This document shows, in pieces, positions 1-7,188 of a DNA stretch of 7,188 nt. Numbering within the stretch: the stretch's first letter is position 1; every line of letters starts with the position of its first letter. The notes under the pieces were generated by a model, which was not told the DNA's origin, ran no database searches, and saw only the letters and a list, made by a program, of their open reading frames with translations. Source of the stretch: a virus (lineage: Duplodnaviria; Heunggongvirae; Uroviricota; Caudoviricetes); the IMG/VR virus record IMGVR_UViG_2534681912_000004; one strand, written 5' to 3'. A program made the translations under genes and the position numbers.

Positions 1-165
1 CTCAACATCCATGCTGTAACGCCCGGCTTCATCCGGATTTTCAGAGGCCACCGTGTTCACCAGTACCGTGGTGCTGTTACGCTTTGCCTTCAGTTGAATA
101 GTGCAGTTCTGTATTGGTTTTCCCGCACCATCTTTCAGCACACCTGAGATTTTTACTGCTGCCAT
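1..165 (-). CDS. stf: Side tail fiber protein, N-terminal 55 codons (5' partial; gene continues past the left edge of the window)
   Basis: ATG at 165-163 preceded by GGAG (174-171, 5-nt spacer). The frame is open to the window edge and translates MAAVKISGVLKDGAGKPIQNCTIQLKAKRNSTTVLVNTVASENPDEAGRYSMDVE, which closely matches my recollection of the lambda Stf N-terminus. Absent from the ORF track because the fragment is under 60 aa. Confidence 0.8.
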   Translation of the reverse strand, partial: MAAVKISGVLKDGAGKPIQNCTIQLKAKRNSTTVLVNTVASENPDEAGRYSMDVE

Positions 166-175
166 ATCCACTCCA

Positions 176-203
176 CAAAAAAGCCCGCCTGAACCGGCGG
201 GCT
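176..203 (-). terminator. Rho-independent terminator candidate between lom and stf (minus-strand orientation)
   Basis: Inverted repeat agcccgcc (182-189) / ggcgggct (196-203) with 6-nt loop. On the minus strand the 8-bp GC-rich stem is followed directly by a T-run (reverse complement of the A-run at 177-181). Lies 27 nt downstream of the lom stop and directly abuts the stf RBS. Confidence 0.6.
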
Positions 204-229
204 GTCATAACACTGTGTTACCTGGCTAA

Positions 230-829
230 TCAGAATTTATAACCGACACCCACGATGAAACCGTCAGTGCGCCAGTCACCACTGCCGGAACCTTCATAAG
301 CAAGGTCAATGGCCACGGATTCGGTCGGGTTAAACTGCACGCCAGCCCCCCACGCCAGAGACGTGTTGCTGTGGCGACCGTCATCACTTCCAGTCAGCAC
401 ATCGTGCGTTTTCCCCTTGCTGTCAGTTACGCGGAGATAATCCCCGGAGAACGTCGAAACACGGCTGTAAGCCACACCCGCCATCGCATAAGCACTGAAC
501 CATTCATTCACGCGTACAGACGGCCCCGCCATCATGCTGAACCAGCGGTTACGCACTGAATCTTCATGCCAGCGGGTATCGCTGTAATGCGTTTTTTGCT
601 CATCTTTGGCATTGGCATAACTGAATGACGTCACCAGCCCCAGCGTGTCCGTAAATTCATAACGGTATTTCACGTTAATGCCCTTCAGGTCATCGTTGCC
701 GGGCATATCAGTATGGGTCTGAAGATACCCGGCGCTTAGTGTGGACTGATGCTCTGCTGCGCTCGCTGGCGTACCAGCAGCAACCAGCCAGACTACTGCG
801 GACAGAATAACAGCACATAATTTACGCAT
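230..829 (-). CDS. lom: Outer membrane protein Lom (Ail/Lom/OmpX/PagC family beta-barrel), moron-type lysogenic conversion gene
   Basis: 199-aa ORF with N-terminal signal peptide (MRKLCAVILSAVVWLVAAGTPASA, AXA-type cleavage site) and C-terminus ...DLAYEGSGSGDWRTDGFIVGVGYKF ending in an aromatic residue as in OMP beta-barrels. Internal blocks (KGINVKYRYE, SAYAMAGVA, YEGSGSGDWRTDGFIVGVGYKF) match lambda Lom as I recall it. RBS GAGAGG upstream of ATG at 829; TGA stop at 232-230. Confidence 0.9.
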   Translation of the reverse strand: MRKLCAVILSAVVWLVAAGTPASAAEHQSTLSAGYLQTHTDMPGNDDLKGINVKYRYEFTDTLGLVTSFSYANAKDEQKTHYSDTRWHEDSVRNRWFSMMAGPSVRVNEWFSAYAMAGVAYSRVSTFSGDYLRVTDSKGKTHDVLTGSDDGRHSNTSLAWGAGVQFNPTESVAIDLAYEGSGSGDWRTDGFIVGVGYKF

Positions 830-850
830 AATTACCTCTCGCTTTTCTGC

Positions 851-877
851 AATAAAAAAGGCGTCATTTCTGACGCC
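851..877 (-). terminator. Rho-independent terminator candidate between J and lom (minus-strand orientation)
   Basis: Stem ggcgtca (860-866) / tgacgcc (871-877) with 4-nt loop. On the minus strand this reads GGCGTCA-GAAA-TGACGCC followed by TTTTTTATT (reverse complement of 851-859). Sits 20 nt downstream of the J stop (TGA at 899-897). Confidence 0.65.
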
Positions 878-896
878 CGTATTGGGGTTATAAAAT

Positions 897-3800
897 TCAG
901 CTGATACTGATGCCTGCGGTGGCTTTCTTCATCACCACAACCAGCAAATCGCTGATACTTGCTGTGGGATACCAGTCATTTACCAGCCATGCTGACACCG
1001 AAAACTCCAGCGTCATGTGACCGTGACCGGCAGGCATATCAATAACGCCACTGTAAATCAGCGTATTATCCAGCGCGGTACGGTTATAAATTTCAGCACC
1101 GTTTTTCCGCACTATCAGACGGCATGAGGAGTAAATATCAGTATGCTCTCTCTCATGTTTAGCGCCGCTGAATGCCACCGCCGGAATAACAATCTGCCGG
1201 TCAAACGGCTGATCGTCATAAATCCTGACGGTAATGGTCCCTGATGGCCACCGTTCCGGTGCACGGGAGTCCCGGGGGAAAGCTTTGCCCACTGTTTTAA
1301 CGAGATCGCCTTCAATCTGGTTCGCGGACAGTTTTCCCAGAACCCGGCAGTTCTCGTTAATCGTGACGTTGTTGAGCGTCCCGGAGTTCGCATTCACGTT
1401 ACCGCTGATATCGGCATTTTTCGCCGTCAGCCGCCCGTCCGGTGTCAGGGAAAATGCCGGAGGATTACCGCCGCTGGTAATGGTGGGAGCCGTCAGATAT
1501 TTCAGGAACACTTCATTCATAAATATCTGATCGCCCTGACCAACAAACATCGGCTTTGTGTTGCCATTCGCAGGATTAACCATCGCAATCCTGTCCGCCG
1601 CCAGCAGCACCTGACTCTGCATGCCGTCAGGGGTGTTCTCAATACCGGCACCAATACCCGCGATATAAAGGCGTCCGTCCTGCATCTGCTGCAGCTTCAC
1701 AGCCCACATGCTGTTCAGGTTATTATTTGTATCAACCTGAACCTTCTGTATCTGCTGGATCGCTGCACTCTGGTCTTCCAGTTTCTTATTGACGGTCTGC
1801 GTGATTTCATTACTGACATCCGTGATGGACGTTCTGATTTCCGCCAGGTCAGGCGCAAGCTGACCGTTATCAATCTGCGTCCACAACTCCTGAGCCAGAT
1901 GGGTTTTCCCTATCTCTCCTTTGAAAAAATCCAGATAGCCGGATGCATCATCACTCGGCTGGCCAACAGCCTCCACGAATGCCGATTTGCCAACGGTGTT
2001 CACACTGCGGATGTAAAAATAATAATCATGGCCCGGCTTGATATTGATACTGGCAGCTATCCAGTACAGCGCCGTGCCAAGATAGCGGGCTGTGGTTTCA
2101 ACCTGCCTGATATCCGCAATCCGCTTTTCCGAGAACCAGAACTCAAACTGTACCGTCGGATCATAAACGGCAAGATACGGCGTGGCGGTTATCTGAAAAT
2201 AGCCCGGCGTCAGCTCAATCCGCGACGGCGCTGCCGGTGCGGCAATCCGGAACGATACCGATGCCGGATCGCCCTGCTGCCCCCAGGCATTTGCCGCCCG
2301 GACTGTCAGCCTGTAGTTTCCCAGCGCCAGTTGCGTGAAGCGGTATGTGGTTTCCGTCGTCCTGGCCGTGCTGACCAGCCGCTCACTGCCGTCATCCGCT
2401 GCCACGGTCAGACGAAGCATAAAGCTCACGCCCTTCACCACCTTCGGCGTGTCCCATCGCGCCAGCACCTGATATTCCCCGCTGTCTGCGGTGACTTCGG
2501 CGGTCAGGTGCTGCACCGCTGGCGGCGTGACACCATTCACCGTGCCGCTCTGGTCGCCGTCAAAGTGCGCCCCGTTATCCACGATGGCCTCTTTCTCCGG
2601 CACATGCTGCACGGCGGTGATGGCATACGTGCCGTCGTCGTTCTCACGGATACTCACGCAGCGGAACAGTCGCTGGCGCAGCGTCGGCAGCTTCAGCCCC
2701 CATACGCTGTATTCAGCAACACCGCCAGGAACACGGCTCACTTTTACCTTCACGCCGTCGGTGACGGACTGAACCTCCACGCTGACCGGACTCCCCTGCC
2801 CGTCAACCAGGCTTATCAGCGTGATGCCGGAGGATGGCAGCGTGATTTCACGGTCGAGCGTCAGCGTCCGCGTCTGGCTGTTCACCGCCAGCACCCCCCC
2901 GCCGATGCTGATACCCGCATAGTCATCATCACAGATTTCAATGACATCGCCCGGTACATGGCGAAGCCCTTCGGCACCCACGCTGAAGTCCACGGTCTGC
3001 GTTTCCAGCAGCTCCGTTTTAATCAGCCACAGCCCGGCGCGGTGTGCCTGCCCCCGGCTGGTACAGCCAAAGGCATCCATCTTCGTGACGTTACGACCGT
3101 AACGGGCAATGGCCTGCGTATCCTCAACAAGCTCTGTCGCCGTCTCCCAGCCGTTATCCGGGTCAATCCAGTTCACCTCAACGGCATTATGGCGGTCCTT
3201 CAGGGCGCTGAAGCTGTAGCGGAACGGCGCGCCATCATCCGGCATCACCACATTACTGCGGTTATAGGTCCACACCTTATCCGACGGTCGGTCCTGCACG
3301 AACGTCAGCGTCTGCCCGTTCCATACCGGCATACAGCGCATCGCCGAGCAGAAATCACTGAGCACATCCCACGCCTTGCGCTGTGTGGTCAGGTACGCAT
3401 TACAGGTGATGCGCGGCTCCGTGCCGCCAAAGCCGTCCGGCACTGACTGGTCGCAGTACTGGCCGATGACATACAGCGCCCATTTGTCCACATCCGCCGC
3501 ACCAAGACGTTTCCCCATGCCGTAGCGTGGATGGGTCAGCATATCCCACAGACACCAGGCCATGTTATTGCTGTATGCTGGCTTAAACGTTCCGTCCCAG
3601 ATACCGCTGTATTGCCGAGTCTGCGGGTTATAGTTCGACGGCACCTGCAGAATACGCCCGCGCAGATGATAATTACGGCTCACCTGCTGGCTGCCGAACT
3701 GCTCCGAATCCACCTGTACGCCGACCAGTGCCGTGTTCGGGTAGCACTGTTTCACATCGATGATTTCGGTGTATGACGACCAGAGCGTTTTGTTCTGCAG

Positions 3801-4376: not shown

Positions 4377-4398
4377 TCGTCATGCTCCATAAACGATA

Positions 4399-4418
4399 AA
4401 ACCGCCCGGAGGCGGTTT
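4399..4418 (-). other. Short GC-rich hairpin in the 60-nt I-J intergenic spacer, function unknown
   Basis: Inverted repeat aaaccgcc (4399-4406) / ggcggttt (4411-4418) with 4-nt loop. Not followed by a clean T-run on the minus strand, so not a classic terminator. Lies about 20 nt upstream of the J RBS. Confidence 0.3.
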
Positions 4419-4436
4419 CACATAAAACATTTTGCA

Positions 4437-5078
4437 TCAGCGACCAATCACCACAACCTGACCACCATCACCTTCATCTGCCGTGCTGATCTCCTGAGAA
4501 ACCACACGTGACCCCACGCGCATTTCACCGTACAGAACCGGCAGAACATTGCCCTGGGCAACCATGTTATCCAGTGAAGAAAAATAGGTGTTCTGTTTGC
4601 CGTTATCCGTTGTCTGTGTGCGGGGGGTTTTGGGTTTAGGGGCCAGCATCTGTGCAACACCGCCAAGCGTCATACTGGCACCGAGAGAAAACAGCAGATT
4701 ACTCGCCATAATTCCTACCCCCGGCATCCATATAGCAACCGCCATAACAGCCGCCCCCAGCACAGCCTGAAACACACCGCCACTTTTGGCTCCTGCCAGA
4801 CGCGGCACGATATGGATCACGGCACCATTTGCCAGCGGCTCATTAAGACGGGCAGACAATTCGGTTTCACCTGCATCACGCCCGGCAATGCGTACCTGGT
4901 ACCAGCCGTCGCTCAGTTTCTGACGAAATGCCGGGATCTGCATGGCCAGCGCCCGGATGGCTTCGGACCCCGTTTTCACTCGAAGGTCGATGCGGCGGCC
5001 AAATCGTTGTAAATCCCCGTAAAGGCAGATGCGTGCCATGCCCGGTGACGCCAGAGGGAGTGTGTGCGTCGCTGCCAT
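4437..5078 (-). CDS. I: Tail tip assembly protein I (213 aa): N-terminal ubiquitin-like domain plus hydrophobic segment
   Basis: ORF translation MAATHTLPLASPGMARICLYGDLQRFGRRIDLRVKTG... and C-terminus ...NTYFSSLDNMVAQGNVLPVLYGEMRVGSRVVSQEISTADEGDGGQVVVIGR match lambda gpI as I recall it. Start is 103 nt inside the 3' end of K in another frame, which I recall is also the lambda arrangement. RBS-like GAGAGAGG upstream, with a rather long spacer of about 11 nt. Confidence 0.9.
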   Translation of the reverse strand: MAATHTLPLASPGMARICLYGDLQRFGRRIDLRVKTGSEAIRALAMQIPAFRQKLSDGWYQVRIAGRDAGETELSARLNEPLANGAVIHIVPRLAGAKSGGVFQAVLGAAVMAVAIWMPGVGIMASNLLFSLGASMTLGGVAQMLAPKPKTPRTQTTDNGKQNTYFSSLDNMVAQGNVLPVLYGEMRVGSRVVSQEISTADEGDGGQVVVIGR

Positions 5079-5719
5079 TTGTCGGTGTACCTCTCTCGTT
5101 TGCTCAGTTGTTCAGGAATATGGTGCAGCAGCTCGCTGTCACCACAGTAAATGGCGGCATGATTCGGCACCGATGAACCAAAACAGCACAGCAGCACATC
5201 GCCCGGCTGCGCCGCTGACAACGGCACCTGATACAGCCCTGTGGCCTCCAGATTATCCAGATAGAGATTCTGACCGTTACGCCACCAGTCATCCCCGCGA
5301 TGAAAATCCGGCATCTCAATTCCCGCCAGATGGTAAGCGTCCCGGAACAGCGTGTAACAGTCCGTTACCCCGTGCTCAAAGCGCCGCCCGGTGAGATGCG
5401 GCACACAGCGGAATTTATGAATCGCCCCCCGGCAGACCAGCCACCACGGCAAATCACTCTGTACCTGCAGCCGCCGGTCGGCCTCACTCAGCCAGGGCAG
5501 ACCACCGGGGTGGCTGTGGACCAGCGCCACAATCTCTCCCTGCATTTCTGCACTCAGCCAGTCCTCCGGCGACATCCGGAAATACTCCTCCGGCTCACCG
5601 GAGATATTCACGCAGGGAAAATATCTTTCCTCCTCCGGCGTTCTCACCACGAAGCCGCACGACTCCGCTGGCGCACATCGCCGGGCGTGCGCCAGAATCG
5701 CTGATTCTGTCTCTGTCAT
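4976..5719 (-). CDS. K: Tail tip assembly protein K (JAMM/MPN metalloprotease-like domain plus NlpC/P60-like domain). Longest ORF is 247 aa; alternative internal start at 5575 would give 199 aa
   Basis: Translation contains an exact JAMM motif HSHPGGLPWLSEAD (H-x-H-x7-S-x2-D) and an NlpC/P60-like Cys-His region (GVTDCYTLF ... NHAAIYCGD ... LLHH). Position between L and I is syntenic with lambda. The start at 5719 lies 5 nt after the L stop but has no obvious SD. The internal ATG at 5575 has a strong GGAGGAG SD 9 nt upstream. Confidence 0.85.
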   Translation of the reverse strand: MTETESAILAHARRCAPAESCGFVVRTPEEERYFPCVNISGEPEEYFRMSPEDWLSAEMQGEIVALVHSHPGGLPWLSEADRRLQVQSDLPWWLVCRGAIHKFRCVPHLTGRRFEHGVTDCYTLFRDAYHLAGIEMPDFHRGDDWWRNGQNLYLDNLEATGLYQVPLSAAQPGDVLLCCFGSSVPNHAAIYCGDSELLHHIPEQLSKRERYTDKWQRRTHSLWRHRAWHASAFTGIYNDLAAASTFE

Positions 5720-5724
5720 GGGAT

Positions 5725-6423
5725 TTACTGCGAAAGTTTGTTAATGGAAAGGAAGCTGCCAAAGTTGCCGACATTATTGCGAAACTTACAGCCACTCAGG
5801 CATTTGCTGCATTTATCCTTCGTGATATCGGACGTCGGCTGGTCATATTCATCCGCGACCGCCGGACCGTGATAACCGCACTCATCGCCGCGATAGGTCC
5901 AGGTGCAGGTGTTGGCCAGCATGATACGTCCCGGAAAAACAGCGCCATCCGTTTCAGTCGGCGTGGACAGTACAAAAGAGGCACTGACCGCGCTCAGTTC
6001 GCTGCACTGCTCGATGCGCCAGCGGCTGATCACCTCCTGCTCCGGATCGGCTTCGCTGTTTCCGTTGACGAAGTTCACCGCATCCAGAAAGCGGGCGTAA
6101 ACCTTACGCCGGACCACCGTTCCGCCGACCAGACTCTGCAGATCTTCCGCCATCCCGGTGATCATGCCGTGCAGGTTAGAGACCGCCAGTGTCGGACGGG
6201 CAGCACTGCCCTTGCCGTTCATCTCAAATCCACTCCCCTGAATGGGATAGGCCTGATACTGCCGACTCTGCCAGGTGACAGACTCACCTTTTTCGTTCTG
6301 CTCATTACAGAAAAAGTAGCGATCCCCGCCTACCTCGGTCAGGTCGATTTCCCAGAGCACCACGCTGGCCGACTGCTCCGCACGAATGCATTCATTCAGC
6401 GTTTCCTGTTGTATGTCCTGCAT
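5725..6423 (-). CDS. L: Minor tail / tail tip protein L (232 aa) with C-terminal cysteine cluster
   Basis: Translation MQDIQQETLNECIRAEQSASVVLWEIDLTEVGG... through ...CSKCLSGCKFRNNVGNFGSFLSINKLSQ is near-identical to lambda gpL as I recall it. Its ATG overlaps the M stop (TGATG at 6425-6421). Confidence 0.95.
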   Translation of the reverse strand: MQDIQQETLNECIRAEQSASVVLWEIDLTEVGGDRYFFCNEQNEKGESVTWQSRQYQAYPIQGSGFEMNGKGSAARPTLAVSNLHGMITGMAEDLQSLVGGTVVRRKVYARFLDAVNFVNGNSEADPEQEVISRWRIEQCSELSAVSASFVLSTPTETDGAVFPGRIMLANTCTWTYRGDECGYHGPAVADEYDQPTSDITKDKCSKCLSGCKFRNNVGNFGSFLSINKLSQ

Positions 6424-6761
6424 CAGATCACCACTTCGTCAAACTGACACGAAAAATCGGTATAGGTGATATGTTCTGTCGCTGACCACGTTCGACACAC
6501 CACTCTGATTTTTCTGTTAATACCCGGCGGGCGCCAAAAAAAAGATTTATAGCCTTCATGCCGGGCTAAAAATTTTTCAAATGAATCACGTTCATTCGCC
6601 TCAACTTTGAAATCACAGGTGAAAACGCGCAGAGAATGATTAAGTCCATTTGGACTTCGTTGCTCATAACCATCGCCAAATCTTACAGTTTTTATCGATG
6701 GTTTATTTTCTGTTTTCATTCCATCCTCTGGTAACCAGTGAAATTCTTCCGTATTAGCCAC
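6423..6761 (-). CDS. M: Minor tail protein M (112 aa, GTG start)
   Basis: ORF with conserved core TVRFGDGYEQRSPNGLN...KSFFWRPP...FDEVVI resembling lambda gpM (KVRFGDGYSQRAPAGLN...KSFLWTPP...FEQVVN, from memory). The N-terminal F-x-W...PEDGM aligns with lambda F-R-W...KPGM, supporting the GTG at 6761. Alternative ATG at 6719 (Met15). Stop overlaps the L start. Confidence 0.85.
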   Translation of the reverse strand: MANTEEFHWLPEDGMKTENKPSIKTVRFGDGYEQRSPNGLNHSLRVFTCDFKVEANERDSFEKFLARHEGYKSFFWRPPGINRKIRVVCRTWSATEHITYTDFSCQFDEVVI

Positions 6762-7095: not shown

Positions 7096-7188
7096 TTATC
7101 TGTGAACTCAGGCTGCCAGATCATCGTTTCCGATGGAAGCATAATAAGCTTTTTCTGCTTCTGCCGGAGGAGTATGGCCCAGCCTTTC

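Follow-up and report, generated by a model that had tools for sequence, protein, structure and literature searches.

Hairpins on both sides of lom in a lambda-like prophage: putative terminators of J and of a promoter-less accessory cassette

How, and whether, a gene can be expressed on its own when it lies in the tail operon of a prophage between two apparent transcription terminators is the question raised by lom in a 7,188-nt stretch of DNA from a tailed virus (Caudoviricetes; IMG/VR record IMGVR_UViG_2534681912_000004). This whole stretch is referred to here as the window and is numbered from its first letter. A sequence-only reading of the window had proposed that lom is an insulated and independently expressed moron, bracketed by terminators in the classic manner, and that the gene beyond it, stf, must depend on read-through. 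Morons are said to have been defined by Juhala et al. in 2000 for the phages HK97 and HK022. The lom gene of lambda has since been labelled a moron and described as a prophage-expressed adhesion factor (PMC3594210). The arrangement itself is already known, as lambda has the same layout and terminators are annotated in phage mEp460, and it is nearly ubiquitous in E. coli, occurring in 4710 of the 5426 complete genomes at a median of two copies.

The genes of the window, read along the minus strand, follow the lambda order M, L, K, I, J, lom, stf (Table 1). The product of lom matches PF06316 (Ail_Lom) over its full length (residues 1-199 of 199, E = 7.6e-127) and also PF13505, and its earlier placement in the Ail/Rck/PagC/OmpX family holds on the strength of the full-length match. 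Translation by eye gives the N-terminus MRKLCAVILSAVVWLVAAGTPASA, which was judged, also by eye, to be a signal peptide; Lom is accordingly predicted to be an eight-stranded outer-membrane beta-barrel of the Ail/Lom family with an N-terminal signal peptide. The beginning of stf is identified by PF08400 (E = 3.8e-26). Among complete phages the closest is 2G7b, with 97% identity to window positions 1-1200; its genome is laid out like that of lambda, a gene for a Q-like antiterminator preceding those for lysis, head and tail. Within J there is also an antisense open reading frame (ORF) of 515 aa (1899-3446, plus strand), which is probably a by-product of the codon composition of J, comparable to orf206b in lambda stf.

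Table 1. Positions in the window of the genes and of the sequence elements around lom
Feature	Description	Position	Strand	Basis
M		6423-6761	minus	ORF listing and Pfam
L		5725-6423	minus	ORF listing and Pfam
K		4976-5719	minus	ORF listing and Pfam
I		4437-5078	minus	ORF listing and Pfam
I/J hairpin	third hairpin with T-rich tail, in the I/J gap ahead of the J Shine-Dalgarno (SD) sequence	~4388-4418	minus	score and folding
J	tail-tip/host-specificity gene, 1159 aa	897-4376	minus	ORF listing and Pfam domains
Putative J terminator	J/lom gap; stem 878-871 : 866-859, GAAA loop 870-867, T6 859-854, then ATT to 851	851-878	minus	
lom leader	GCAGAAAAGCGAGAGGTAATT, 21 nt, 5' end of the cassette; SD GAGAGG 840-835	830-850	minus	
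lom coding sequence	199 aa; ATG 829-827	230-829	minus	ORF listing and Pfam
lom 3'UTR and putative lom terminator	stem 203-196 : 189-182, loop GGTTCA, T6 182-177	177-229	minus	
lom cassette	extent relative to lom-less relatives, ~673 bp	~850-178	minus	junction comparison
stf start	SD GGAG 174-171, ATG 165-163, N-terminal 55 codons (coding sequence 1-165)	1-176	minus	Pfam

On either side of lom a hairpin followed by a T-run is present on the minus strand where the sequence-only reading had placed it, and both are far above chance. The J/lom element reads GGGCGTCA-GAAA-TGACGCC(T) and is followed by TTTTTTATT (859-851); its stem consists of seven Watson-Crick pairs and one G-U pair, and the 21 nt between its T-tract and the lom ATG contain the SD of lom. 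The lom/stf element, AGCCCGCC-GGTTCA-GGCGGGCT, has a stem of eight pairs, seven of them G-C, closed by a 6-nt loop and followed by T6 and then by GTGGAG, the SD of stf starting 3 nt past the T-run. The minimal elements fold with free energies of -13.6 kcal/mol (J/lom; z = -4.46) and -18.2 kcal/mol (lom/stf; z = -4.50), and in neither case does any of 200 shuffled sequences fold as well. Folding energies too weak for termination, which would have counted against the original proposal, are thus not what is found. The third hairpin, GAAACCGCC-TCCG-GGCGGTTTT followed by ATCGTTTAT, lies in the I/J gap and has a dG of -23.2 (z = -3.6).

On a terminator score d in the style of d'Aubenton-Carafa, calibrated on lambda, the J/lom element reaches 30.8 and the lom/stf element 42.8, the maximum of the window; when both strands are scanned the only other site above zero is the one in the I/J gap, at 19.3. 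All three sites are on the coding strand and in intergenic gaps, and every intergenic gap of the window longer than 20 nt (three of three) holds a hairpin and T-run. Sixty dinucleotide shuffles of the window, scanned on both strands, gave 0.33 sites with d > 0 per shuffle and none with d >= 30. In a scan of the whole of lambda the lom/stf hairpin ranks first, with d of 40, and the known terminators to, tR2, tL1 and tI score 16-30. By fold and score, therefore, the J/lom and lom/stf hairpins look like canonical intrinsic (Rho-independent) terminators. A match to the Rfam family Trp_leader at 175-257 (minus strand; the 3' end of lom and its terminator) was rejected, its 21.7 bits lying below the gathering threshold of 41 (E = 0.77), and is most likely a generic match to the terminator hairpin.

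The conservation of the hairpins was followed in lom loci fetched from collections of viruses and genomes, 113 in all, which were collapsed to distinct flanks. The J/lom stem is 100% paired in 22 distinct variants although three of its eight pairs have been altered on both sides, from G-C to A-U, from C-G to U-A with G-U intermediates, and from A-U to U-A. None of 500 shuffles reaches the observed covariation, and the signal collapses in shifted-register controls. The lom/stf stem is 96.9% paired and conserved, with variants of the G-U type only and no double compensatory change. The 21-nt leader of lom is nearly invariant in the 22 variants, and one locus with a divergent Lom protein (L110) has it in common with the window too.

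These observations bear first on the possibility that the hairpins are chance inverted repeats, or a conserved recombination 'linker' between modules, with no function at the level of RNA. Such a linker would suit the finding that the lom cassette varies far less at its ends than in its coding body, as Lom proteins only 40-54% identical (L110, L091, L090 and the lambda copies L092-L104) are encoded next to a 3'UTR and terminator nearly identical to window positions 177-229. It would also suit the mosaic joints seen in three loci (L018, L027 and L007), in which other DNA takes the place of stf right after the lom T-run TTTTTTGTG, so that the joint and the end of the cassette coincide exactly. 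The shuffle controls on folding and on d, the compensatory substitutions with their wobble intermediates, and the placement of every site with d > 0 on the coding strand, one in each of the three gaps between genes, speak against it, as do the mosaic boundaries relative to lambda (~1380 and ~330), which are away from the hairpins. Covariation, d scores and shuffles largely refute this explanation, and it is now scarcely credible.

Selection on an RNA structure does not specify the function selected, and the hairpins might instead be mainly elements of RNA stability or processing rather than terminators: by blocking 3' exonucleases they would divide the long late mRNA into segments and determine the relative abundance of upstream cistrons. 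The late operon of lambda has comparable hairpins after D, E, I, J and lom, and if nothing terminates there under antitermination by Q, some other selected role is plausible. Exonuclease barriers, however, need no U-tract, and the T-rich tail directly 3' of the stem is retained in lambda, L090 and Gifsy-1 despite the differing sequence there; furthermore, the d scores equal or exceed those of proven lambda terminators. Termination fits better than a pure exonuclease barrier because the tail has been kept where the sequences differ, and we think it distinctly improbable that stability is the main role of these hairpins.

Which of the two putative terminators belongs to lom can be read from relatives in which the gene is absent. 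In Escherichia phage Tritos (OV696610.1) J is followed directly by stf, the gap consisting of a J/lom-type hairpin, TTTTTTATT and TGTGGAGTGAGT-ATG(stf). An exact-pattern scan of IMG/VR found at least 86 viral contigs in which the J terminator is joined to the ribosome-binding site (RBS) of stf; among the 80 of these that were fetched, the C-terminus of J lies upstream in 79 and stf downstream in all 80, and lom is present in none. Two lom-less contigs (L198 and L177) match the window at 97% identity across 350 nt made up of the end of J and the terminator. With a slash marking the joint, the lom-less junction reads ...TTTTTTATT/TGTGGAG, and the window has ...TTTTTTATT/GCAGAAAAG (which begins GCAG) on the left and ...GGGCTTTTT/TGTGGAG on the right, the latter being ambiguous by a few T. 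These empty-site alleles therefore agree with the window at the 3' end of J, in the terminator that follows and at the start of stf, but lack lom and have only one terminator separating J from stf. As lom-less relatives keep the J/lom hairpin abutting the SD of stf, the upstream terminator belongs to J and not to the lom unit. The lom/stf terminator, as the junctions show, belongs to the lom cassette, which is made up of the 21-nt leader with its RBS, lom, the 3'UTR and its own terminator. With or without lom, stf starts 3 nt beyond the T-run of a terminator. That lom is an accessory gene inserted between late genes is confirmed in so far as it is present or absent at the J/stf position in relatives; the ancestral event may have been either insertion or deletion of lom.

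Other phages carry other cargo at the same spot, namely an 81-aa ORF in Gifsy-1, a 163-aa ORF in PhiR12_2 and a reverse-strand lipoprotein gene in CAjan, which makes the J/stf position a slot for accessory genes in general. The arrangement in Gifsy-1 parallels that of lom in its parts: a hairpin with a T-rich tail, an SD, a small ORF for a secreted protein, a terminator (AGCCTGCCTGCGGGCGGGCT TTTTT), a further SD and stf. It differs in that the upstream hairpin has another sequence and the ORF (L120, 1199-1441), whose product begins with the signal-peptide-like MTMSRVISLAAGVSLSVLFSTAAVA, is unrelated to lom.

Several further arrangements were seen among the lom loci. Fifteen of them (the L064, L051, L050 and L085 group) have the same J terminator and lom with a different 3' flank and no start of stf; in this flank lies a long hairpin, ACGCAGGTTCA...TGAACTGCGT, whose T-tail is no more than weak. 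The DNA that replaces stf in L018, L027 and L007 opens with a terminator-like hairpin in the opposite orientation, CCCCCAGC-TAG-GCTGGGGG. Lambda-type lom was also found on short contigs of ~1x coverage (L092-L104 and L108-L114) from assemblies labelled Neobacillus, Kitasatospora, Pseudomonas, Bradyrhizobium, Shewanella and others, and such contigs look like contamination with, or a spike-in of, lambda DNA.

Lambda itself has the same gene order, J-lom-stf (orf-401), a hairpin and T-run in the J/lom gap (CGTCCGGGAACGGGCG TTTTATTAT), a nearly identical lom/stf terminator (AGCCCGCCGGAACCGGTGGGCT TTTTTT) running into the SD of stf, and the same I/J hairpin (L116, ~2466-2490). Its Lom is only ~45% identical, the C-terminal, receptor-binding part of J and the J/lom spacer are divergent, and its J/lom hairpin is weaker, with d of 9 against 30.8 in the window. 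Aligned with lambda (L001), the window shows one divergent block, from ~1380 to ~330, of 50-65% identity, which takes in the receptor-binding part of J, the spacer and the first five-sixths of lom, with 85-93% identity on either side. The hairpins were considered as the boundaries of a block mobile relative to lambda and rejected as such, given the extent of this block. Along lom the identity to lambda rises and falls periodically, as expected for conserved barrel strands and variable surface loops. The GenBank and RefSeq records of lambda contain no terminator features in the J-lom-stf region. The record of mEp460 (NC_019716.1) labels both of its hairpins 'rho-independent terminator' (18380-18406 and 19055-19080); the lom/stf hairpin there is identical to that of the window and the J/lom hairpin nearly so. 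There are minor sequence variants, a GGAA loop and AAAGGGCG in place of ACGGGCG, and J has a different 3' end.

A cassette with its own terminator might still be expected to have its own promoter. A consensus scan of the whole window found no promoter on the minus strand. A sigma-70 position weight matrix (PWM) scan of ~470 nt upstream of lom gave a best score of 6.1, below the tenth-best match in shuffled sequence (7.7), and the same scan upstream of stf, and at the equivalent places for lom and stf in lambda, found nothing over the shuffle background; scans of this kind leave room for weak or activator-dependent promoters. Candidates overlapping the T-tract (TTTATT / AATTAT) were rejected, as transcription would start inside the ORF. 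No promoter fits between the upstream terminator and lom because there are only 21 nt there, and transcription from any promoter inside the end of J would run into the J terminator before it reached lom.

This is a difficulty for the view that lom is a self-contained, insulated moron, transcribed in lysogens as a discrete monocistronic mRNA. On that view its promoter would be located within the last part of J or overlap the J terminator, the upstream hairpin would serve as insulator or attenuator, and the lom mRNA would end at the downstream hairpin. There is experimental reason to entertain it, since lom has been reported to be expressed from repressed lambda prophages (PMC7067206, PMC1151598), and in lysogens of Phi24B its expression is uncoupled from induction (PMC3342100). 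Its presence/absence polymorphism and its own 3' terminator fit the definition of a moron, and the other cargo found in the slot in Gifsy-1, PhiR12_2 and CAjan is likewise in keeping. Against this, lom went undetected in the lysogens of a different microarray study, which comments that little is known of its promoter (PMC2147009). The 21-nt spacing, the PWM and consensus scans, the strong terminator that any transcript starting in J would meet, and the presence of the upstream hairpin where there is no lom all weigh in the same direction. Nor is lom compositionally distinct: its GC content is ~0.53 against ~0.50 in its neighbours, and a scan across lom gives 0.50-0.58 against 0.45-0.55 for the 3' end of J and stf, so that a horizontal origin of lom finds no evidence in composition. 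The description of lom as an insulated, independently expressed unit was consequently not borne out for want of space and of a promoter within ~470 nt upstream, and we regard a self-contained moron of this kind as unlikely.

The comparison with the morons of HK97 and HK022 (e.g. HK97 gene 15, and lambda bor; reviewed in PMC3594210) is instructive here. Like them, lom is an extra gene between conserved late genes, at a junction of syntenic relatives that lack it; it has its own factor-independent terminator after the gene (203-177), inside the boundaries of the cassette; and its product is of a kind that affects host fitness. Unlike them, it has no recognisable promoter immediately upstream, its GC content does not deviate, and the terminator in front of it is a resident one. 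The bracketing by terminators, which had been put forward as the classic architecture of a moron, does not discriminate, as the essential gene J is likewise bracketed, by the I/J and J/lom hairpins. The late operon of lambda has a hairpin and T-run also at D/E, E/FI and I/J (L208, ~6101-6121, ~7164-7186 and ~15466-15486, respectively), and such elements follow most of the lambda late genes that do not overlap their neighbour. Flanking by terminators is not specific to morons. The moron interpretation thus survives in part: the terminators, the status of lom as an accessory cassette and the need for read-through into stf stand, and the insulation, the independent expression and the diagnostic value of the bracketing do not.

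The explanation that we prefer, and consider to be quite probable as a whole, is that both hairpins act as Rho-independent terminators within the late operon (its tail part) of a lambda-like prophage. The J/lom hairpin would be the resident terminator of J, which in lom-less relatives adjoins the RBS of stf; the lom cassette would sit right after the T-tract of J and, through its own terminator, recreate the sequence of terminator, T-run, GTGGAG and stf. In lambda, Q-modified polymerase that starts at PR' reads through terminators across the whole of the late operon. During lytic growth such polymerase would, by analogy with lambda, ignore these terminators and yield a single late mRNA of I-J-lom-stf. 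In the repressed prophage the terminators would halt unmodified polymerase before lom, stf and the genes beyond. In Stx phages transcripts from PR' terminate unless antiterminated, according to PMC7547250. The window contains neither Q nor PR', and we infer both the efficiency of termination and read-through under Q for this phage. As for stf, its SD lies 3 nt beyond the T-run and it has no recognisable promoter, as had been pointed out; read-through by antiterminated polymerase is therefore a reasonable conclusion.

The reported expression of lom in lysogens sits uneasily with these hairpins, given a strong terminator just 21 nt ahead of the gene and the lack of any visible promoter. In the preferred explanation it would be due to partial read-through by transcription from a weak or activator-dependent start that overlaps the J terminator or lies upstream of it; the remaining option is that the signal stems from spontaneously induced cells. 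In the literature that was searched, no mapped promoter, start site or 3' end for lom was found. Two more specific readings can be put forward, which even taken together we think very unlikely. One would make the J terminator a conditional attenuator, with a weak constitutive start in the end of J and regulated read-through setting the level of lom in lysogens; if true, it would explain the inconsistent reports of lom expression. The other would have the almost invariant 3'UTR and terminator of lom released as a 3'UTR-derived RNA, acting as a small RNA of the Hfq type. The microRNA-size RNA 24B_1 of Phi24B, from the 'lom-vb_24B_43 region', was considered and set aside: that region is a 428-bp flank, absent from lambda according to the authors (PMC4426718), and the window has the lambda-type flank instead.

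What has been added here to a familiar arrangement is the assignment of the upstream terminator to J by means of the empty-site allele, and the definition of a promoter-less cassette of RBS, ORF and terminator. Beyond a tidier annotation this matters little. It does carry a caution, that 'flanked by terminators' is no diagnostic of a moron inside antiterminated late operons, where such elements are common punctuation, and a promoter-less cassette sharpens an old question about these prophages, namely whether stable lysogens transcribe lom, and by what means.
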